A stretch of DNA of 64,000 nt from Phyllobates terribilis. Its lineage: Eukaryota. This document shows, piece after piece, positions 12,536-60,916 of this stretch. The notes under the pieces are model-generated. The model was not told the origin of the DNA. It searched no databases and saw nothing but the letters and a program-made list of their open reading frames with translations. The translations under genes and the position numbers were made by a program. How positions within the stretch are numbered: the stretch's first letter is position 1; the number at the start of each line of letters is the position of its first letter. The stretch covers positions 131,626,001 through 131,690,000 of the forward strand of contig NW_027362771.1 in assembly GCF_046119375.1 (NCBI RefSeq), written 5' to 3'.

Positions 12536-13339
12536 TAAGGTTTGGCTTTCCACCAAAATCATAAATTTGAAGACTGGTTGCAAAAAGTTGGATCCTAATA
12601 ATTCATAGGCTCAATCTAATTTATTCAGCAAATTAATCCGTCATCTTTTGTCTGAAGCTACCTTTCATGTTAAAAATTCCTAATACTTTTCATATCCCCC
12701 TACTGTGTTCTATGGTGCTTAAAAACATTTCTATTTAGCGGCACCAAAATGAGGGAGACAGGGGACAGGAGTGACTATTACGCAAATGTCTTGGTTTAGA
12801 GACAGACTCTGATACCTTCCCCTATGACCGCCACCATTTGCTGTGCTTTATGTCAGGTTTTCAAGTTGTCCGGCACACACCAGTGACACTACATAAGGCC
12901 GATTCTGATATAGGTAGTATTGACTACCTATGTGTTGAATCAGTATTGTGTTCAATTGCTGTTTGTCTTGGAGTCTGCCAGCATTCAGTTCCTTCAGCAG
13001 CAATCATCTTTGCATATTCCTATTGTTTACATACACTGTTCCACAGACTTGCGGATTATTCCATTGTCTTCTGTGAGCATTACAAACTGTTATTTAGAGA
13101 CTGTACACATTACATTGCAATCATCTCTGCTAACTCCTATAGTTTAGTCAACTTGCACCTACATCCTGATTCAGACCTTCCATTTAAACCTTCATCTGCT
13201 CTCTTGCAGTTCTCTACTCTCTTGATTCTGCGGCATCCAGGGTGTCCAGCATGGTCCGTTGCCCAGGTCCTAGCTGCTATTACATTGGCCTCAGTCTGTG
13301 TTTTCATCCTGACCTGAGGCTTAGTGGATCCATCTCACC

Positions 13340-13620
13340 AGGTGAGCCTAACAAGAACAGGGCTCTTTGGGGACCATATCATCTCTTCCAGGACACCTTG
13401 CTCTTCTTCAGACTGAAGATAGTTCTTAGTAATATTGACTGTATGCTTGGAATTGTTGTTCTGCTTCAGAATATATTTGGAGCCAATCAGATGTCTCCCT
13501 GATGGTTTTTTGATGGATAAATATTTGTCTGTATTTCTCAGTATTGAAGACACCGTTCATCCTCATGAAATTGAAAACTCCATTTACTGAAATCCAGCTC
13601 CAACCTTGCAAGGAACCTCA
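13340..13620 (-). pseudogene. Tc1 transposase fragment
   Basis: RMNGVFNTEKYRQI...SGRHLIGSKYILKQNNNSKHT resembles a decayed [10 protein letters not shown] region. Confidence 0.55.
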
Positions 13621-13837
13621 ACAATGCTTGACTGTTGCCTCTAGACACTCATTTCGCAAAAAAATGGATAAACGATATAATGGTGTCCAAGAGGCAATAT
13701 GCAAATTGCCTCTTCAGAGAAAAAGAGGACTTAAACTCTATATTGTCACCTATTGGAAGCAGCAATCCTACAAGTCACAATCAACCCTTTAGAGTCGTGC
13801 AATATGACTTAGGATAAAAGCCAAATCAGAATCTCAA

Positions 13838-13882
13838 TTTACAGAAACAATGTTTCGGGTTGTTGGCCCTCGTCAGTGCAAA
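13838..13882 (-). ncRNA. Minimal type I hammerhead ribozyme, copy B (core intact, stem III mismatch)
   Basis: - strand: UUUGCA CUGACGA GGGC caaca ACCC GAA ACA uug UUU C|UGUAAA. CUGANGA and GAAA are intact; UUC triplet; C.U mismatch in stem III. Confidence 0.8.
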
Positions 13883-13945
13883 GTATGAGAACTGATTTGG
13901 CTAGATGAGAGTCTCTGGACTGAGGTCTAAGGGGTAAAGTTTCTC

Positions 13946-14036
13946 CTTGTGGAGAGTGACACACCGACTCTGACATGTCAAGGTAAGGAGGCTTATTCAC
14001 CGTGCAATGCTCCACAGGGAAATTTAATATGCAAAT
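13946..14036 (-). promoter_or_regulatory. snRNA-type promoter-like module inside the hammerhead repeat unit
   Basis: Octamer ATGCAAAT at 14029-14036 (also 13699-13706). ACTCTCCACAAG (- strand, 13957-13946) resembles the Xenopus U1/U2 PSE as recalled (CTCTCCnnATG). A weak SPH/Staf-like element lies at 14003-14022. Confidence 0.5.
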
Positions 14037-14169
14037 TAACTCTTCAGAGAAAAAGAGGACTTGAATTCTATATTGCCACCTATTGGAAGTAGCAATCCTA
14101 CAAGTCACAATCAACCCTTTAACGAGTCGTGCAATATGACTTAGGATAAAAGCCAAATCAGAGTCTCAA

Positions 14170-14214
14170 TTTGCAGACACTGTGTTTTGGACTGTTGGCC
14201 CTCGTCAGTGCAAA
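14170..14214 (-). ncRNA. Minimal type I hammerhead ribozyme, copy A (G12A lesion)
   Basis: - strand: UUUGCA CUGACGA GGGC caaca GUCC AAA ACA cag UGU C|UGCAAA. Stem I 6 bp, stem II 4 bp, stem III 3 bp, GUC triplet; GAAA reads AAAA. Confidence 0.8.
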
Positions 14215-14310
14215 GTATGAGAACTGATTTAGCTAGATGAAAGGCTCTGGACTGAGGTCTAAAAGAGGCAATATCAATTTTTTTTAAAATAAAAAAATAA
14301 TTAATAAAAT

Positions 14311-14783
14311 ACAACCTGTCTCCTCCCTACATCTGTGACCTAGTCTCCCGGTACTTAAGTGCACGCAATCTCCGATCCTCACAAGATCTCCTTCTCTACT
14401 CCCCTCTTATCTCCTCTTCCCACAATCGCATACAAGATTTCTCCTGTGCATGCACCCTACTCTGGAACTCTCTACCCCAACGTATCAGACTCTCGCCTAC
14501 CGTGGAAACCTTCAAAAGGAACCTAAAGACCCACCTCTTCCGACAAGCCTACAACCTGCAGTAACCACCGCTCCACCATACCGCTGCACGACCAGCTCTA
14601 CCCTCACCTACTGTATCCTCACCCATCCCTTGTAGATTGTGAGCCCTCGCGGGCAGGGTCCTCTCTCCCCCTGTACCAGTCGGTGACTTGTTTTTGTTCA
14701 GACTGTTGTACTTGTTGTTTTCTATGTATACCCGTTTTTCACATGTAAAGCGCCATGGAATTAATGGCGCTATAATAATAAAA
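14311..14783 (+). mobile_element. 3' end of an L2-type LINE
   Basis: PPYI.DLVSRY..ARNLRSSQDLLL...LLWNSLPQRIRLSPTVETFKRNLKTHLFRQAYNLQ* (TAA 14562-14564), then a tail tgtaaagcgccatggaattaatggcgctataataataaa. Confidence 0.82.
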
Positions 14784-28250: not shown

Positions 28251-28630
28251 TCAAGATATCGGGGATTTTTTTGACCATACTTGGTTCTTTGTTGGTTTGA
28301 GTGTGGCCACTATGTAGAAAAATAAAAATAAAACCGTTGCAGAATTGCTGTTTTTTGTTAATTGGGACCAATCAGAAATATTAGATTAAAAAAAAGTGTT
28401 CAAAAAGTCGTAAGAACCCTAATGTGGAATCAAAACAGCTTTCCCTACAAAAATCAGGCCATTACACAGTTCACTCAAATAAAAAAATAAAAGAAAGTTA
28501 TAACTATTAGAAATATATTTTACAAATGTATATACTGCAAAAAATTGACAAAACAAAATAACTACATAAAATTAGTATTGCCATAATCATACTGACGTAA
28601 CATTTATGCTGTAAGGTAACATTTATGCTG

Positions 28631-30157
28631 TAAAGTGGAGAGCGCAAAGTTTAACCCTTTAATGACCCCAAAATGCTTTTAATGGCCGTCATTAAGGAGT
28701 GTTAATCCTCAACGTTGTCCACATAATTGGTATCGCCACATTCAAAAACGACCCCAACTATCAAAAGGTCACATTATTTATCCCATATGGTGAACACTTT
28801 AAAAGAGAATAAAAATGCAAAAATGTAGCTGTGTCATCATACTGACATGCAAAAAAATGTAATAAAAAGCAATTAAAAACTCGTAGGTAAAAAATAAAAG
28901 TTATCATTGCTCTGTTGGTGGATAAATAAATCATCAAATCATCCAGAAAAACAAGCCGTCATACAACTCTGTTGGCAAAAAAAAAGTTTGAACTCTCAGA
29001 ATGAGATGAATATTTTTTTTTGATGTAGCAAAAGTAGCAAAACAAAAAATAAAAAGAAAAAAAATGAAAAAGATAAAAATCTTGTTTTTGCTGTAATTGA
29101 ACTGAGCTGAAGAATAGAGTTGTCTCCACATGGTGAATGATGTTTAAGAAAATAAATAAAAGTAATTGTTGAACTGCTGTTTATTTGCTCATTCTGCCTC
29201 CCAAATATCAGTGTAAGGGCATAGTCAGACGGCTGTATAAATCAGATCAAGATCGGAACATAGTGCACGAACTGGTTGGCGGCTCTCCCAATCCAAGCGT
29301 GACAGCTTCATGTATTTCTATGCAGCTGTCAATTTCTGGTCAGGAGAGCAGCCAGCCAGTCCGAGCACTGCGTTCAGATCTCGGTCTGATTTATAGGGCC
29401 GTATGACTGCACCCTAAGGCCTTGGATTAAATTTATCTTGTTCTCTACTCTGAATACTTACTTTGGGGTTACATTCTAAATCTTCAAAATACATGATTTA
29501 GACAAAACCACTTCTGGAACTACTCACTTAAATAATAAGGCCGATGGAGTTACTTTGGACTCTGGCCTCTGTTCTGGCGGTGTCTGTCATTTTGGCATAC
29601 AAAAGATGGGGCACTTCCAGAACAGAGGACAGACATGTTCCAAAAGGTCACCATCTAGCTCATTATAGTGAAAGGTTCTGTCGGGCAATCTATTTTTTAT
29701 ATTAGGAATGGTACCAATAAACTTCAAACTTCAATTAGGTCCATCATCTATCAGTGAAAAAGGTGGATCTCCAAGTTACTGGTAGTACAAAGGCTCTGGA
29801 AAAACAAGGCTCCACTCCAAAAAAATCCAACGGAATCTGCGCTCTAAAATACAAATGGCTCCCTCCCTTCTGATCCCTGCAATAACCATCTGCATGTATG
29901 GCATTACTGTAGCAGGGAGAGCCCACTTAATTAGGCTGTGTGTCTCCAGAAGCGTAGTAAAATGCATTCAGCAGTTTTTACTGAACCCGTCGATGAATTC
30001 ATAGAGTGATCTAGTTTTCAAAATGTGTTTTTTTTTGCTATTCTGGCACCTTAGGGGCTCAGTAAGTGACACACGCAAGCTATTCTATTAAACATGTGAT
30101 GTCAAATGGTGCAGCATAGATATCTCTTAGAGTTTTATAACATTGGGCCATCATGAC

Positions 30158-30188
<31 letters not shown>

Positions 30189-32244
30189 TTATCACTAAAA
30201 TGTTACATTAGCTGCAAACTTTTCATTTTCACCTCCCAATGATAGAGTAGGGACTCGCAAAATCATGAGGACCCTTGACGTTTGGGTTAAGAGCTTACTT
30301 ATTTTGGCCAAAATATCAACTAATACCTCATATGATATATTTTTTTTGCACTTTTTTATCTGCCAGGGCGTGGCCAGGCCCACTTAGGGTGACCCTGTGA
30401 ATGAGGGCATTGCACCTCTGCGATGCACGAAGAGGGTGCCGGGCATCCCGCCTAATCGACTAGGAAGGGCGTTTAATAGGATGCCGGCCAGGCACGGTTG
30501 CTGCGAGTGTGAATGGCACCCTATTTGCAGGTTTCATCTGGTGCGGTTATATTGCGGGGCAGTCACTCCTCCAGTGTGAGTGGTTGAGAGTGATTGCTCA
30601 CGGCATTCCGCACCTGTGTCATCTCCTTCCTACAGGGGGGGGGGGCCGGCCGCGTCCTGGTGTGTATTTCTCTTGTACCTTTGGCTGCTAAGTTCCATTG
30701 CCTTTTTGCTATTTTCTAAAGTGGAGAGCGCAAAATTTAACCCTTTAATGACCCCAAAATGCTTTTAATGGCAGTCATTAAGGAGTGTTAATCCTCAACG
30801 TTGTCCACATAATTGGTATCGCCACATTCAAAAACGACCCCAACTATGAAAAGGTCACATTATTTATCCCATATGGTGAACACTTTAAAAGAGAATAAAA
30901 ATGCAAAAATGTAGCTGTGTCATCATACTGACGTGCAAAAAAATGTAATAAAAAGCAATTAAAAACTCGTAGGTAAAAAATAAAAGTTATCATTGCTCTG
31001 TTGGTGGATAAATAAATCATCAAATCAAACAGAAAAACAAGCCGTCATACAGTTCTGTTGGCAAAAAAAAAGTTTGAACTCTCAGAAAGAGATGAACATT
31101 TTTTTTGATGTGCAAAAGTAGCAAAACAAAAAATAAAAAGAAAAAAAATGAAAAAGATAAAAATCTTGTTTTTGCTGTAATTGTACTGAGCTGAAGAATA
31201 GAGTTGTCTCCACATGGTGAATGATGTTTAAGAAAATAAATAAAAGTAATTGTTGAACTGCTGTTTATTTGCTCATTCTGCCTCCCAAATATCAGTGTAA
31301 GGGCATAGTCAGACGGCTGTATAAATCAGATCAAGATCGGAACATAGTGCACGAACTGGTTGGTGGCTCTCCCAACCCAAGCGTGACAGCTTCATGTATT
31401 TCTATGCAGCTGTCAATTTCTGGTCAGGAGAGCAGCCAGCCAGTCCGAGCACTGCGTTCAGATCTCGGTCTGATTTATACGGTGGTAGGACTGTACCTTA
31501 AGGCCTTGGATTACATTTATCTTGTTCTCTACTCTGAATACTTACTTTGGGGTTACATTCTAAATCTTCAAAATACATGATTTAGACAATTTAGTTCCTC
31601 TTCTGGAACTACTCACTTAAATAATAAGGCCTATGGAGTTACTTTGGACTCTGGCCTCTGTTCTGGCGGTGTCTGTCATTTTGGCATACAAAAGATGGGG
31701 CACTTCCAGAACAGAGGACAGACATGGTCCAAAAGGTCACCATCTAGCTCATTATAGTGAATGGTCCTGTCGGGCAATCTATTTTTTATATTAGGAATGG
31801 TACCAATAAACTTCAAACTTCAATTAGGTCCATCATCTGTCAATGAAAAAAGTGGATCTCCATGTTACTGGTAGTACAAAGGCTCTGGAAAAACAAGGCC
31901 CCACACCAAAAAAATCCAACGGAATCTGCGCTCTAAAATACAAATGGCTCCCTACCTTCTGATCCCCGCAATAACCATCTGCATGTATGGCATTACTGTA
32001 GCAGGGAGAGCCCACTTAATTAGGCTGTGTGTCTCCAGAAGCGTAGTAAAATGCATTCAGCAGTTTTTACTGAACCCGTCGATGAATTCATAGAGTGATC
32101 TAGTTTTCAAAATGTGGGTTTTTTTTGCTATTCTGGCACCTTAGGGGCTCAGTAAGTGACACACGCAAGCTATTCTATTAAACATGTGATGTCAAATGGT
32201 GCATAGGTATCTCTTAGAGTTTTATAACATTGGGCCATCATGAC

Positions 32245-48858: not shown

Positions 48859-51212
48859 GGCCATATACCGGATACACATGTCCTCTGTGGTAGAGCTGGG
48901 GGGGGCCATATACCGGATACACATGTCCTCTGTGGTAGAGCTGGGGGGGGCCATATACCGGATACACATGTCCTCTGTGGTAGAGCTGGGGGGGGCCATA
49001 TACCGGATACACATGTCCTCTGTGGTAGAGCTGGGGGGGGCCATATACCGGATACACATGTCCTCTGTGGTAGAGCTGGGGGGGGCCATATACCGGATAC
49101 ACATGTCCTCTGTGGTAGAGCTGGGGGGGGGCCATATACCGGATACACATGTCCTCTGTGGTAGAGCTGGGGGGGGGGCCATATACCGGATACACATGTC
49201 CTCTGTGGTAGAGCTGGGAGGGGCCATATACCGGATACACGTGTCCTCTGTGGTAGAGCTGTGGGGGGGGGGGGCCATATACCGGATACACGTGTCCTCT
49301 GTGGTATAGCTGTGGGGGGGGGGGCCATATACCGGATACACGTGTCCTCTGTGGTATAGCTGTGGGGGGGGGGCCATATACCGGATACACGTGTCCTCTG
49401 TGGTATAGCTGTGGGGGGGGGGGGCCATATACCGGATACACGTGTCCTCTGTGGTATAGCTGTGGGGGGGGGGCCATATACCGGATACACGTGTCCTCTG
49501 TGGTATAGCTGTGGGGGGGGCCATATACCGGATACACGTGTCCTCTGTGGTATAGCTGTGGGGGGGGGGGCCATATACCGGATACACGTGTCCTCTGTGG
49601 TATAGCTGTGTGTGTGGGGGGGGGGGCCATATACCGGATACACGTGTCCTCTGTGGTATAGCTGTGGGGGGGGGGGGCATATACCAGATACACGTGTCCT
49701 CTGTGGTATAGCTGTGGGGGGGGGGGGGGCATATACCGGATACACGTGTCCTCTGTGGTATAGCTGTGGGGGGCCATATACCGGATACACGTGTCCTCTG
49801 TGGTATAGCTGTGGGGGGGGGGGGGCATATACCGGATACACGTGTCCTCTGTGGTATAGCTGTGGGGGGCCATATACCGGATACACGTGTCCTCTGTGGT
49901 ATAGTTGTGGGGGGCCATATACCGGATACACGTGTCCTCTGTGGTATAGCTGTGGGGGGCCATATACCGGATACACGTGTCCTCTGTGGTATAGCTGTGG
50001 GGGGCCATATACCGGATACACGTGTCCTCTGTGGTATAGCTGTGGGGGGCCATATACCGGATACACATGTCCTCTGTGGTATAGCTGTGGGGGGCCATAT
50101 ACCGGATACACATGTCCTCTGTGGTATAGCTGTGGGGGGCCATATACCGGATACACATGTCCTCTGTGGTATAGCTGGGGGGCCACATACCGGATACACG
50201 TGTCCTCTGTGGTATAGCTGGGGGGCCACATACCGGATACACGTGTCCTCTGTGGTATAGCTGGGGGGCTACATACCGGATACACGTGTCCTCTGTGGTA
50301 TAGCTGGGGGGCTACATACCGGATACACGTGTCCTCTGTGGTGTAGCTGGGGGGCTACATACCAGGATACACGTGTCCTCTGTGGTATAGCTGGGGGGCA
50401 TATACCGGATACACGTGTCCTCTGTGGTATAGCTGGGGGGCATATACCGGATACACGTGTCCTCTGTGGTATAGCTGGGGGGCATATACCGGATACACGT
50501 GTCCTCTGTGGTATAGCTGGGGGGCTACATACCAGATACACGTGTCCTCTGTGGTATAGCTGGGGGGCCACATACCGGATACACGTGTCCTCTGTGGTAT
50601 AGCTGGGGGGCTACATACCAGGATACACGTGTCCTCTGTGGTATAGCTGGGGGGCATATACCGGATACACGTGTCCTCTGTGGTATAGCTGGGGGGCATA
50701 TACCGGATACACGTGTCCTCTGTGGTATAGCTGGGGGGCTACATACCGGATACACATGTCCTCTGTGGTATAGCTGGGGGGCATATACCGGATACACGTG
50801 TCCTCTGTGGTATAGCTAGGGGGCTACATACCAGATACACGTGTCCTCTGTGGTATAGCTGGGGGGCTACATACCGGATACACATGTCCTCTGTGGTATA
50901 GCTGGGGGGCATATACCGGATACACGTGTCCTCTGTGGTATAGCTAGGGGGCTACATACCAGATACACGTGTCCTCTGTGGTATAGCTGGGGGGCCACAT
51001 ACCGGATACACGTGTCCTCTGTCGTATAGCTGGGGGGCTACATACCAGGATACACGTGTCCTCTGTGGTATAGCTGGGGGGCATATACCGGATACACATG
51101 TCCTCTGTGGTATAGCTGGGGGGCTACATACCGGATACACGTGTCCTCTGTGGTATAGCTGGGGGGCTACATACCGGATACACGTGTCCTCTGTGGTATA
51201 GCTGGGGGGCCA
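48859..51212. repeat. ~45-bp minisatellite, about 50 copies, in CCDC59 intron 1
   Basis: Unit ccatataccggatacac(a/g)tgtcctctgtggta(g/t)agctg(tg)G(n). First copies at 48861, 48906, 48951, 48996, 49041. Confidence 0.98.
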
Positions 51213-51235
51213 TATGCCAAACACATGCGACCATA

Positions 51236-53051: not shown

Positions 53052-53471
53052 CAGCAGCACTCCATTATGGCCAAAATACATAAAGACAATAAAAATGTTT
53101 GATTTAAACTGTGTTATTACTCAATGAACTTTACTTACAAAAAACGGAGGTTCTTAGCGCATAAACTGGCCAATTCATGTGTGCCCATCAACCGCTGCAA
53201 GGTGACCTCCCATCTGATGGGTACTACTCTGCCTACATGCCTCTCTTGGGCTACAAGCCTATAACTCTGTAGCCCAAGAGAGGCATGTAGGCAGAGTAGT
53301 ACCCATCAGATGGGAGGTCAACTTGCAGCGGTTGATGGGCACACATGAATTGGCCAATTTATGCGCTAAGAACCTCCGTTTTTTGTAAGTAAAGTTCATT
53401 GAGTAATAACACAGTTTAAATCAAACGTTTTTATTGTCTTTATGTATTTTGGCCATAATGGAGTGCTGCTG
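53052..53471. repeat. 420-bp near-perfect fold-back (204-bp arms, 12-nt loop)
   Basis: 53052-53255 is the reverse complement of 53268-53471 with 3 mismatches seen by eye. Loop agcctataactc; abuts a (TA)n tract. Confidence 0.95.
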
Positions 53472-55187: not shown

Positions 55188-56601
55188 ATGTATATATAAT
55201 ATATATATTTTTTTTTTCTTCCTCAGGGGACCAGCACTGCTATGTACAGTACAGACCAAAAGTTTGGACACACCTTCTCATTTTAAAGATTTTTCTGTAT
55301 TTTCATGACTTTGAAAATTGTACATTCACACTGAAGGCATCAAAACTATGAATTAACACATGATGGAATTATATACTTAACAAAAAAGTGTGACGCAACT
55401 GAAAATATGTCTTATATTCTAGGTTCTTCAAAGTAGCCACCTTTTGCTTTGATGACTGCTTTGCACACTTTTGGCATTCTCTTGATGAGCTTCAAGAGGT
55501 AGTCACCGGAAATGGTTTTCACTTCACAGGTGTGCCCTGTCAGGTTTAATAAGTGGGATTTCTTGCCTTATAAATGGGGTTGGGACCATCAGATGTGTTG
55601 TGCAGAAGTCTGGTGGATACACAGCTGATAGTCCTACTGAATAGACTGTTAGCTGCTTTTTTTTCTTGGCATAATACAAATTCTAAGTAAAGAAAAACGA
55701 GTGGCCATCATTACTTTAAAGAAATGAAGGTCAGTCAGTCTGAAAAATTGGGCAAACTTTGAAAGTGTCCCCAAGTGCAGTTGCAAACACCATCAAGCGC
55801 TACAAAGAAACTGGCTCACATGAGGACCACCCCAGGAAAGGAAGACCAAGAGTCACCTCTGCTTCTGAGGATAAGTTTATCTGAGTCACCAGCCTCAGAA
55901 ATCGCAGGTTAAAAGCAGCTCAGATTAGAGACCAGGTCAATGCCACACAGAGTTCTAGCAGCAGACACATCTCTTCAACAACTGTTAAGAGGAGACTTTG
56001 TGCAGCAGGCCTTCATGGTAAAATAGGTGCTAGGAAACCACCGCTAAGGACAGGCAACAAGCAGAAGAGACTTGTTTGGGCTAAAGAACACAAGGAATGG
56101 ACATTAGACCAGTGGAAATCTGTGCTTTGGTCTGATGAGTCCAAATTTGAGATCTTTGGTTCCAACCACCGTGTCTTTGTGCGACGCAGAAAAGGTGAAC
56201 GGATGGACTCTACATGCCTGGTTCCCACCGTGAAGCATGAAGGAGGAGGTGTGATGGTGTGGGGGTGCTTTGCTGGTGACACTGTTGGGGATTTATTCAA
56301 AATTGAAGGCATACTAAACCAGCATGGCTACCACAGCATCTTGCAGTGGCATGCTATTCCATCCGGTTTGCATTTAGTTGGACCATCATTTATTTTTCAA
56401 CAGGACAATGACCCCAAACACACCTCCAGGCTGTGTAAGGGGTATTTGACCAAGAAGGAGAGTGATGGGGTGCTACGCCAGATGACCTGGCCTCCAGGCC
56501 TCCACAGTCACCAGACCTGAACCCAATCGAGATGGTTTGGGGTGAGCTGGACCGCAGAGTGAAGGCAAAAGGGCCAACAAGTGCTAAGCATCTCTGGGAA
56601 C

Positions 56602-59472
56602 CAGGGCTGTGGAGTCGGAGTTAGTTTTGGTCGGAGTCGGTAGAAATGTACCGACTCCGACTCCAGCTTTTAAAAAAAAATGTATTAATATTTCATAATT
56701 GAACTTTCATATGAATTTTATAATGTTACTCAAATATATATGAACAACAGTGATAAGCAGTTCTGCTGAAGATAGAGACATTTCTTACTTCTTGTGTGTC
56801 ACTGTTCTCCACTGCCCTTATCTAATCTTATACTTGGTTAACCTCATGCTGCCCCAACCCCCCTACTTACAATGTATGAAACTGAAAGTGAAAATGTGTT
56901 GCAAATTCTTAGTAGTAAAGCTCCTCCTCTAGACTAGATGTTTACTAGGTGTGTGTCTTCCAAGCATCTCACAGCTGCTACTCAGAAGCGGAAGACTGTA
57001 AGAAGTATTATCCTTTCAACAAACTTTGCATCAGTTAACTGTGAGTACATGAGGAATAACAGTATTAATGACCACTATATCAGTTGTACGACCTGGCAAT
57101 AATTTTGTACAATTGTTTTTAGGAAAAACAATTGTCATTTGGATTGTGAATGCAGAATTAAAAACCTGAGTGTCAAAGAAGCGTCACATTAAATCAGCTG
57201 TATTTGAACACTTCACCATCACTCAAGATAGAAAACATTATGTCTGTCAGTGTATGACAAATGATCCAGACGAAAACAAATGCTGTGAAGCCAAGATCAG
57301 TGCATATTCAGGCAAAGATAAAAATGCTCCTACCAGAGCTTCTAATCTAAAGAGACATTTACAGCGCTTTCAACCAGAAGTACTGAAAGCAGTGGATGAG
57401 AGAGAATGCATCCAAACCAATGAACCAGTGCCCTGCTCTTCCAGCCAAACAAAGGAGCAGAGCACTTTGCAGCCATCAGTTGCAAGATATTTTGTCAGTG
57501 ACAAAGTTACTCTGACAATGACAGTAGATACATTTAAAAAACAGATCATAGAGCTTGTTGTAAAGGATAGTGTGCCTATTTCATTATTTTCACGACCAGC
57601 TTTTGTGTCTGAATGGGGAAATGGCCCGCAAGCTTGGTGTTTCTCTGGAGAGAGAGAGTATTAGAAAATTAGTAATCCAAGAAGCTTTTAAACAAAAGGA
57701 AGAACTTAAAAAAAACTCTCAAGGGACGCTTTCTGTTTCTTAAAATGGATGCCTGCACACGTCACAGAGTGAACTATTTTGCCATCAATGTCTGATTTGT
57801 TTGTGACAAAAATGAAATAATTACCAAGACATTGGCAGTAAAAGACACCAAAGCTCATCACACCAGTGAGTTTCTCCAGGTCTTGGTGGAAAAGGTTCTG
57901 CAAGACTATGAACTTAAAAAAGAGCAAGTTCTTTCTGTCGTAACTGACAATGCTTCAAATATAAGTACTATTAAGCTAATGAATGAGAGTAATGATGGTG
58001 ACCAGCAGCTAGAAGAACATTCTGGGTCCACAGACACAGAAATGTTTGAAATAGAGGAACACAGTATTGTAACTGAGGAGCAAACTGAAGTTGCTTCAGA
58101 TGAACAGCAACATGATAGTTTAGATGATCTTGTTGAAACTGTGACAATTCGTTCTTTCATTCATCACATGTGCTGTGTTGTGCATACACTACAGCTGGCT
58201 ATAAGAGACAGTCTGCAAGAAGGACATGCTGCTGCACTGATTGGCAAGGTGAGAAAATTGGCTACTGTTGCCAGAACCCCTAAAGTTGACTCAATTTTGA
58301 AGAGACGTGCTGGAAAAGGGGCAATTATTGATCAAGCCACACGATGGGGCAGTACTTACTTAATGATTCAGCGCTTGGTTGAACTGAAAACCTTTCTTGT
58401 AGACATGGCTAACCCTCAACTGACGCTAAATGAAAGTCAGTGGAATCAGGTGACTGAGCTGGAAAAATTGCTAGAGCACCCATTTACAGTGACTAAAAAA
58501 TTACAAGCAGAGGACTTAACTCCAGGTATTTTCTTAAAGGAGTGGAAGAACCTGATGTTTCGCCTGTCCCAAAGAGGAGGATTAATTGCAAGTGGCATTG
58601 CTACATCAATGAAACGGAGAGAGGAGCTACTATTACAAAATAGCATTCTTTTGGCAGCTGTTTATGTAGACCCAATGCATCGGATTCTTCTAGATGATCA
58701 ACGGCTAACTAAAGGAAAAGAAGCTCTGTTTGAAATAGCAGTAAGGATGAAAGGGTTGCAGAACAGTCAGGAGGAACAAGAAGAATTTGGTCGTCCTGCC
58801 ACATCTTCACCCTCATCATCAACTGATGAAGAATTTAATTTCGAAAAATATTTGGATCACAAGGACCGTGCAAAGTGTTCCCGCATAGAAGAAGAGTCAT
58901 CCCCATCAAAGAACACAGCCAGTACATTTCAGCAGAATTTTTCATGTGCACTAAAAGAAATTGAGAAATTTGACCGTTCATCAAAAATAACAGTGCAACA
59001 AGCGATTCCTCTGTATCCTGACATTGTCAGAGATGTTGCCCGAGTGGTTACTGCTTTGCCACCAACCCAAGTTAGTGTAGAGAGGTTGTTCTCTGCTCTC
59101 AAAATAATTAGATCAGATTTGAGGGCATCCATGAAGGAGGATCTGACAGAGGCAATACTTTTTCTGAGGACAAATTTCTAGATTTCTTCTTATTAACTGC
59201 ATAAGTGTTTATTGCATATTTACTTACAAGAGTTTAGAAAAGTTTCTAAAAGTTATTTGCTATATTCTAATTGTATTCTAATAAATAGAGTTTTTGCTCT
59301 AAGTGGTCTGATTACTTATATGATGGTGAGAAACTGAATAAGCACGATGTTAATATTTTAAAACAGTAAATTTATTGTTCCGAATTGGCCATTTATGAAG
59401 GAGTCTGAGTCGGAACCTGATAAAATCCAGGAGTCGGAGTCGCAACTGTGGCTTACCGACTCCGCAGCCCTG
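56602..59472 (+). mobile_element. Full-length hAT transposon (2871 bp)
   Basis: 17-bp TIRs cagggctgtggagtcgg / ccgactccgcagccctg; 8-bp TSD ctgggaac / ttgggaac; subterminal GGAGTC repeats. Confidence 0.93.
57170..59181 (+). pseudogene. hAT transposase pseudogene
   Basis: BED-like N-terminus (FEHF..C.C..CC..SNLKRHL), LKMDACTRH, VVTDNAS, CVVHTLQL, TRWGSTY, and the C-terminal dimerisation motif LPPTQVSVERLFS. Frameshifts at ~57.61-57.71 kb and an in-frame TGA at ~57793. Confidence 0.88.
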
Positions 59473-60916
59473 TTGGGAACTCCTTCAAGATTGTTGGAAG
59501 ACCATTTCCGGTGACTACCTCTTGAAGCTCATCAAGAGAATGCCAAGAGTGTGCAAAGCAGTCATCAAAGCAAAAGGTGGCTACTTTGAAGAACCTAGAA
59601 TATAAGACATATTTTCAGTTGTTTCACACTTTTTTGTTAAGTATATAATTCCACATGTGTTAATTCATAGTTTTGATACCTTCAGTGTGAATGTACAATT
59701 TTCAAAGTCATGAAAATACAGAAAAATCTTTAAATGAGAAGGTGTGTCCAAACTTTTGGTCTGTACTGTATATCAAAAATCACGTCACGATCTCCTATGA
59801 ACTCTGGCCACGGGCTGGCGTTCACAGGAGTATCATGATGACCGGCACGGGGGTCTTCAACAGATCACCGGCTGTCATGACAACCCATCTGTGCCCCACG
59901 ATCACGTGACGGGCGTACCAATGACACACTTCCTGTCTGCACGTGATAAATGCCACTGTCGGTGATAGACAGTGCATTTAACTGGTTAACAGCCGTGATT
60001 TGATCTCTGATCCACCTGTGGCTGTTAGAGGCACTTGATGGCTGATTAAATCAGCCATCAAATGCCGGGAAAGATGCGAGTTCTGTGTGAGCCCGTATCA
60101 AAGGCAGGAACATGGCTTATGATGTGAAGGGGTTAATGCAGTCTTAAAGGGGTTTTCCACTTTAAGAAAAGTGAACCCCAACACTTTTATATACATAACA
60201 CTCAGAGCAGGTACTTGCCCTCCCTGGAACTCTCCGCTGCTGCTCTGGTCTCAGTTTTGGTTGCAGCCATGATGTCATGTCTACAGCTCACATTACCGCT
60301 GCAGCTAATCAAAGAGCTCAAATGGTCTGTTTATGTAGATGACACTTTTCTGAGCTCAGTGACTTGCTGCAGCTGTGATGTTATTTTGACTGCTCACATC
60401 ACCGCTGCAGTCAATCACTGAGCTCAGCATTTAGTCCTGCCTACATTGATAGAGCTGCTGAGCAGTGATTGGCTTCAGCAGTGAAACGCACTGTTTGTGT
60501 GACTTCACCGGTGCAGCCAAAAACACAGACTGGAGCAGCAGTGGAGAGCAGCATTGGGTTGGAAACCCATAATAGTCCATTGACGTTTCTGTGATCATTG
60601 TCTCATTGCTGCTACTATTAAGCTTACACTCTGCCGCGCTGTCTGCAGAAAATACAGGAAGACTATGTTTGTCTTCGATAGAAAAGCTTTATTTTTCTTA
60701 CATAAGAGAAGAGAAACTGCAAAATAAAAAAAATCTGAAATTCTTGATCATCTTTTAATGAACCACTGAAACTAATAAACTGAATTTGTAGCATTTTCCG
60801 AGGATAAGCAAGGATTTTGTGTAACTGTTGTAGAAATCGCCTTTCATGTTGCTGTGATCTATATGCAGATGGGAATTTATCATTCTTACATTATGGGTTC
60901 TCTTCGTTCTAGGGAA

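Follow-up and report, generated by a model that had tools for sequence, protein, structure and literature searches.

A dispersed family of 332-nt hammerhead retrozymes in Phyllobates terribilis whose insertions end at two fixed sites

Non-LTR retrozymes owe their definition to PMC7229834, where the axolotl families of 331 and 353 nt are described as cleaving as dimers and forming circles, and where Penelope-like elements are put forward as the likely movers. According to a 2026 preprint (bioRxiv 10.64898/2026.07.22.740005) they are present in 7/7 amphibian genomes, with a mean consensus of 316 bp and 57 families in Xenopus; the Xenopus families are tied there to the terminal repeats (pLTRs) of Penelope-like elements, and 8/9 Xenopus dimers failed to cleave. 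The same text regards the mechanism as still to be established and considers tandem expansion at a local scale. Both the mover of animal retrozymes and the origin of the tails and inverted copies of Penelope elements are stated as open in passages of this preprint and of PMC11167929, PMC8557442 and PMC7229834.

As regards the Penelope elements themselves, the purified Anolis protein, modelled as a dimer, cuts and extends both strands at AT-rich DNA and starts at two internal sites of the RNA, which define the genomic tail (PMC11167929). This "tail" is often found at one end only (PMC8557442; PMC3846280). The Penelope-type hammerhead is minimal, without helix III and without the tertiary contacts provided by loop 1–loop 2 elements (PMC6155905).

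The window analysed here, a stretch of 64,000 nt from Phyllobates terribilis, contains a 567-nt insertion on the - strand, running from 14262 to about 13696, which is made up of 1.7 units (332 + about 235 nt) and is flanked by an exact 12-bp target-site duplication, ATATTGCCTCTT (Table 1). The outer ends of this duplication, 13689 and 14274, are the very limits which a preliminary description of the window had given to the element, and the two - strand hammerhead motifs which it had placed 332 nt apart are present (UUUGCA-CUGACGA-stem II-(G/A)AAA-stem III-NUC-UG(C/U)AAA), with predicted cuts at that spacing. It had also proposed tandem units of ~331 nt, each with a hammerhead. A unit of 332 nt and both motifs were indeed found, but the window holds a single insertion of fewer than two units and neither of its ribozymes is intact. 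In comparison with the column counts of 106 family pieces, copy 1 has an A in place of G12, the general base of the hammerhead (PMC6155905), while in copy 2 two pairs are gone, the one that closes stem II and C15.2–G16.2, and the triplet reads UUC. Because of these changes both window ribozymes are probably inactive, as far as activity can be read from sequence. Consecutive complete ribozymes are absent from the window copy itself, both cores being damaged, and the copy is a decayed and probably dead insertion. Its site A, one of the two fixed ends described below, contains the ATTTGCAT octamer and has 5 nt in common with the target-site duplication. The one long stop-to-stop frame of the element has no match to a Pfam family, in line with the earlier statement that no protein-coding ORF is present.

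Table 1. Parts of the retrozyme insertion in the window
Feature	Position	Strand	Remarks
Target-site duplication, 5'-side copy	14263..14274	-	ATATTGCCTCTT on the - strand; exact 12-bp repeat at both ends
Full 332-nt unit	13931..14262	-	Unit positions 1–332; 5' truncation point 14262
Hammerhead copy 1	14151..14234	-	Extended stem I; core CUGACGA 14208–14202; predicted cut after 14176; G12 to A, likely inactive
Second, partial unit	13696..13930	-	Unit positions 1 to about 237; ends at fixed site A
Hammerhead copy 2	13819..13902	-	Predicted cut after 13844; stem II closing pair and one pair of stem III disrupted, triplet UUC; likely impaired
Site B (CCCCTTAGACC region)	13920..13930	-	Unit positions 4–9; second fixed end of the family; internal in the window copy
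Site A	13696..13706	-	Unit positions 231–237; main fixed 3' end of the family, ~147 nt beyond the cut site
Target-site duplication, 3'-side copy	13689..13700	-	

On its + strand the window continues, next to the element, with a stretch (14301–14760) which looks like the 3' end of an L2-type LINE and for which no Pfam match was obtained. On the other side lies a - strand frame with GVLEEMIWSPKSP (13335–13560), which we take to resemble a Tc1 transposase motif.

A 28-nt core pattern gave 1,614 exact matches genome-wide and none for its reversed control, and the two window motifs are therefore not due to chance. These matches are a lower bound on copy number, and the unit is clearly not single-copy. 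A first look with the 332-nt unit returned 4,433 candidates in the 10.6-Gb genome, the 40 which were scored being 91–94% identical. Divergence from the column majority has a median of 2.3% outside CpG and polymorphic sites (272 pieces). For an older subfamily, about 73–87% identical, a search with the core specific to it found 120 exact matches, and a pattern for diverged canonical cores gave four matches, all belonging to the 332-nt family. In the samples examined the copies are dispersed on many chromosomes, with one to six units per insertion and lengths of 175–2,364 nt, most of them shorter than two units, which does not bear out the satellite-type organisation first envisaged. Intact cores 332 nt apart do occur in the family, in tandems of up to six units.

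The unit has a GC content of 46%. A 72-codon frame is open in 27/43 main-subfamily copies but in only 1/6 older copies; with this distribution and no Pfam match, a coding role for the frame was rejected. Among the sequences with a matching stretch none is recorded as RNA. The stretch was matched in 20/24 listed runs, under four organism labels, and four runs which we guess to be RNA have 286–789 matching contigs each; such contigs cannot reveal ends, strand or circles and do not amount to evidence of transcription.

The family thus combines a hammerhead motif in a unit whose length lies within 150–450 nt, tandem cores, lack of coding capacity, a GC content below 50% and duplications of more than 4 bp, features by which non-LTR retrozymes are recognised. 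It resembles metazoan non-LTR retrozymes, in particular axolotl Rtz331 and Rtz353 (PMC7229834) and the amphibian families of the preprint, in its canonical type I hammerhead motif, non-coding unit of ~330 nt, low GC, short tandems, duplications and co-occurrence with Penelope-like elements. It is a real feature of the genome and a new family within this described class, although the supplements of PMC7229834 and bioRxiv 10.64898/2026.07.22.740005 may list it. The novelty claimed in the preliminary description does not extend to the kind of system, which is already known because the preprint reports non-LTR retrozymes, linked to Penelope-like elements, in all seven amphibians.

The motif of the family reads UUUGCA CUGAYGA GGGC CAACA GCCC GAAA CACCGUGUC UGCAAA. 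Beyond a UAC bulge stem I is prolonged by 15–16 pairs, stem II consists of four pairs capped by a CAACA loop, and in helix III two pairs follow A15.1–U16.1; the helix III pairs, the bulge and the loop are conserved in the family. Helix III, the UAC bulge in a long stem I and the CAACA loop II rule out the minimal (Penelope-type) hammerhead which had been proposed. Given the extension of stem I past the bulge, the family ribozyme is, by motif and predicted fold, a canonical extended type I hammerhead. This call rests on motif and fold, since the suggested comparison with Rfam found no hammerhead family, either in the window region (E up to 5) or in six multi-unit loci (E up to 0.5). Intact cores are present in the family, 64 of 106 main-subfamily pieces having an intact hammerhead as judged by motif and pairing (locus L021 is an intact example), and in a predicted circle of the unit helices I and II form, with z of -3.6 against 60 shuffles. 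The closing pair of stem II is C–G in the main subfamily and G–C in the older one (96 and 4 of the first 100 cores listed, none mixed). On these sequences the swap keeps the predicted ribozyme fold between the subfamilies, and it represents a single change between masters, not many. The near-palindromic loop III of the unit would also allow a double-hammerhead fold.

Several of these traits recall newt satellite 2, which likewise has a unit of ~330 nt, an octamer motif, a near-palindromic loop III and an extended type I hammerhead whose helix I contains an internal loop (PMC6155905). One might therefore see in the family the counterpart of satellite 2 in a frog, related to it by descent, which would have an snRNA-type promoter of its own and spread mainly by tandem DNA amplification. 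The length of 332 nt is close to the 330–331 nt or so of newt and axolotl (PMC7229834), a promoter of snRNA type is known from newt satellite 2 (cited in PMC2220036), and the octamer of the unit is also found at -240 of this genome's U1 genes. Only this octamer is common to unit and U1, the one snRNA compared; a match between the U1 proximal element and the unit did not exceed chance, being equalled by 449–500 of 500 shuffles. The copies, moreover, are dispersed single insertions with duplications and not arrays, and helix III is longer, with two pairs past A15.1–U16.1 against a single pair in the satellite 2 type (PMC7229834). We consider this reading as a whole rather unlikely. The U1 genes mentioned form an array at G000:C1:534.628-534.672 Mb (L231-L240) with a period of 1,079 bp and the octamer at -240. 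The unit may also contain SPH-like and PSE-like motifs.

The anatomy of the insertions was studied in three similarity-ranked samples of 30 loci, biased by the query, from which seven loci were removed (repeat locus or segmental duplicates) to leave 83 insertions, and in a position-ordered sample of 60 loci taken in chromosome order from the core-match list, with five already examined being skipped and two being segmental duplicates. For the pooled analysis of duplications, in which one older-subfamily locus was also removed, 140 loci were used. The 5' ends of the insertions are scattered, but their 3' ends cluster at two fixed positions, sites A and B, which lie 105 nt apart and about 147 and 252 nt, respectively, beyond the cut site. 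The sense arms of the 83 independent similarity-ranked insertions end at A in 55 cases, at B in 26 and elsewhere in two, the two site windows making up 12% of the unit. In the position-ordered sample 49 loci end at A, five at B and six elsewhere, with 39/43 direct insertions ending at A. Where ends could be anchored by a duplication, A was placed at unit positions 231–237 in 52/60 ends and B at 4–9 in 28/35.

Exact target-site duplications of 9–15 bp (mode 12) close 66/140 insertions, with no ORF within, which agrees with the earlier proposal of a multi-copy non-coding retroelement mobilised in trans. Duplications of at least 9 nt accompany 25/29 inverted and 25/54 direct insertions, against about 1% with swapped flanks, and they are AT-rich (71% A+T vs 57% in the flanks). 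In about a third of the insertions (29/83 and 17/60) an inverted piece is found at the 5' side, giving a head-to-head structure. Thirty-three inverted insertions have an exact duplication: 29 could be classed at both ends and 29/29 of these pair an A with a B, three have one end elsewhere and one was not placed. If the ends were chosen independently, unlike ends would be expected at most half the time. This unlike-ends rule was noted in the first samples and then held in 10/10 classed insertions (nine independent) of the position-ordered sample. Of 14 inverted insertions of the older subfamily, classed by eye, eight are A+B, one is B+B, one is A+A, one is truncated on its A side and three could not be classed; the B+B exception has a perfect 13-bp duplication and the A+A exception a weak one.

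5' truncation, duplications of 9–15 bp and 5' inversions are hallmarks of LINEs too, and would fit movement of the unit, as a SINE, by a LINE (L1, L2, CR1 or similar) with inversions arising by ordinary twin priming. In LINE twin priming, however, the inverted arm starts at a variable internal site, whereas that of the retrozyme starts at a fixed one. Neither a poly(A) nor a simple-repeat tail was found at A or B, and the identical pattern is seen in the Penelope-like elements of the same genome. LINEs are named as possible movers in PMC7229834; for this family we hold them to be very improbable.

The head-to-head forms might instead come about by fold-back self-priming of a single cDNA, or from an antisense template, as proposed for rotifer Penelope elements, in which palindromes at the inverted junctions were read in this way (PMC3846280). 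Nested arms would be compatible with this, and in 23/29 inverted insertions the sequence of one arm lies within that of the other or both span the whole unit. In the remaining 6/29 neither arm contains the sequence of the other, so that fold-back copying of one cDNA is excluded for these. The points at which the two arms end internally do not mirror each other, and fold-back would leave the fixed, different sites of the outer ends unexplained. We regard it as an unlikely origin.

With respect to the template, none of the 140 insertion 5' ends falls at the cut site (unit positions 85–91), and 18/27 arms cross it in a sample for which the core was not required. The template was thus a circle or an uncleaved multimer and not a cut linear monomer. 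Within one insertion 20% of polymorphic sites differ from unit to unit, compared with 39% from insertion to insertion and a background of about 5%, values compatible with either of these two templates. Junction microhomology averages 1.5–1.8 nt, compared with 0.5–0.6 in a control that understates chance.

In the covered text of PMC7229834 and of the preprint, non-LTR retrozymes are described without fixed internal ends or head-to-head insertions, and our literature search, which covered openly available texts, found no report of fixed ends or of an unlike-ends rule for any retrozyme. What is new in the 332-nt family is its insertion anatomy.

A coding partner was sought among the Penelope-like elements of the same genome. 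A GIY-YIG family search, in which 150 of 4,370 candidates were scored, gave 147 matches, 30 of which were used as loci; together with 14 flanks and 29 loci from a protein search these make 73 Penelope-like loci. The unit has no DNA in common with these 73 loci, save for one retrozyme copy beside L089. This is a head-to-head copy (G000:C4:562163390-562163823), ~700–1,200 bp upstream of the GIY-YIG match, and it was probably inserted into the Penelope-like element. Recognisable ribozymes at the 3' ends of the Penelope-like loci are minimal or degenerate, not canonical. Most of the 30 translated GIY-YIG matches have a linker rich in cysteine ahead of the nuclease, as is characteristic of the Neptune and Nematis clades (PMC8557442), and we infer from this linker that they are presumably of Neptune type.

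These coding elements, too, occur as head-to-head pairs. Among such pairs 4/9 were evaluable, both of their ends being intact, and in 4/4 one arm is 82–98 nt longer than the other, with duplications of 13–18 bp. One pair taken whole measures 7.9 kb between 14-bp repeats and contains RT and GIY-YIG domains, the RT lying under the Pfam cut-off. Two further pairs have one short and one longer arm, with no duplication within 220 nt. A Penelope-like locus of this genome, L271, has a frame of 865 aa.

The preliminary description distinguished the unit from an ordinary Penelope terminal repeat, and this distinction stands, the insertions being closed by duplications without an ORF. A pLTR joined or homologous to an RT + GIY-YIG ORF was rejected for the 73 sampled loci. 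A related possibility is that the unit is the detached pLTR of an unsampled autonomous Penelope-like element and that the copies are its 5'-truncated insertions. The end anatomy is that of Penelope-like elements, 24/57 Xenopus retrozyme families match Repbase elements, nearly all Penelope-like, at their termini (bioRxiv 10.64898/2026.07.22.740005), and the GIY-YIG search scored only part of its candidates. On the other hand, what follows in the long arms is always another unit (up to six in L169) and not coding sequence. The 60 position-ordered and 30 older loci show no family-wide extension past the unit, exact duplications close 66 insertions, and there is no homology to the Penelope-like loci sampled, unlike the situation in those preprint families which are tied to pLTRs. 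A detached pLTR of this kind seems to us quite unlikely, while an ancient pLTR origin of the unit is possible.

The insertions end at two fixed points, as do those of this genome's Penelope-like retrotransposons, and copying by a Penelope-like enzyme is therefore likely. With the tailed Penelope-like elements (Anolis Poseidon PAc, PMC11167929; rotifer Penelope, PMC3846280; PMC8557442) the family has in common 5' truncation, an inverted 5' copy, a tail at one end, duplications of 8–15 bp, AT-rich targets and ends inside the RNA downstream of the ribozyme. It differs from them in having no ORF and in a ribozyme motif that is canonical rather than minimal. The tail is also longer, the 105 nt between A and B exceeding the 30–40 nt of tails in print and the 82–98 nt of the coding elements of this genome. 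We consider a link between the 332-nt retrozyme and Penelope highly likely, and it is likely that the family is a non-coding, dispersed non-LTR retrozyme which ends at two fixed sites and is copied by a Penelope-like reverse transcriptase/endonuclease. A priming step in which each strand uses one site is, in our estimate, reasonably probable.

Such copying by a Penelope-like enzyme might proceed as follows. Intact copies would be transcribed as multimers which, by analogy to axolotl, would self-cleave and be ligated to circles or stay partly uncleaved; we give circle and multimer about equal weight. A Penelope-like protein, probably a dimer, would bind this RNA and nick both target strands about 12 bp apart. 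One 3'-OH would prime cDNA synthesis at internal site A and, if acting alone, would give a direct, 5'-truncated insertion like the window copy. The other strand, when extended too, would prime at site B, and joining of the two cDNAs would give a head-to-head insertion with unlike ends. As copying would pass through the ribozyme cut site, the insertions would contain permuted, fractional numbers of units. The simplest reading, drawn from the Anolis protein, is that A and B may be internal RNA start sites and that the two nicked strands may use different ones in a single event. Several points speak against this explanation: no partner came to light among the 73 Penelope-like loci, the older subfamily has its A+A and B+B exceptions, and the A–B distance exceeds the tails in print. 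In vitro, moreover, no difference in start site was seen between the strands, and no homology between target and template (PMC11167929), whereas 1–2 nt of microhomology are present at the retrozyme junctions.

We lean slightly towards the fuller proposal that the family is a genomic record of Penelope-type enzymes moving ribozyme RNA circles, in which the dimer would hold the RNA at two fixed sites 105 nt apart and each nicked strand would be primed at a site of its own, with A preceding B. If true, this would explain the long-noted one-sided "tail" of Penelope and its head-to-head structure, provide direct evidence for Penelope machinery inserting animal retrozymes with which it has no sequence in common, and offer a 332-nt minimal template for testing Penelope-type insertion. 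Earlier evidence for the mover of retrozymes consisted of co-occurrence and pLTR similarity; here it is the scars of insertion that speak for Penelope machinery, and the unlike-ends rule allows a clear-cut prediction to be made in vitro for a very small RNA.

A number of observations concern the Penelope-like elements in their own right. Neptune-type tails of 82–98 nt, longer than the 30–40 nt in print, were noted at L079/L080, L151/L152, L159/L160, L161/L162 and L272. In 3/4 coding pairs a word resembling a splice donor, CAG/GTGAG, comes immediately before the long end, and CTGG precedes both ends. A word common to the unit and the Neptune ends, GAGCTGGTG, was considered and rejected, the older subfamily being without it. 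The 3' untranslated parts of L063, L066, L068, L078-L080 and L083 define a young Neptune-type family, 96–98% identical, in which stem II and GAAACGCGT persist whereas the CUGAnGA core of the minimal hammerhead is gone. Finally, one Penelope-like fragment, which has an open frame of 555 aa, is found dozens of times in a single orientation at intervals of roughly 70–200 kb, as though embedded in a very large tandem repeat; its sites are in G000 at C12:79.7-83.1 Mb and 153.6-154.9 Mb and on C73, C190, C214, C315, C562 and C592.

The window contains other repeats as well. A direct duplication at 28624–31896 has a period of about 2,086 bp and 97–98% identity, with an internal hairpin in each copy, and a minisatellite at 48859–51215 consists of about 52 copies of a 43–45 nt period with 93% matches. 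A 204-nt hairpin with 99% complementarity (53052–53471) and a 4.4-kb stretch with inverted ends of about 240 nt that match at 97–99% (55282–59734) are probably derivatives of DNA transposons.
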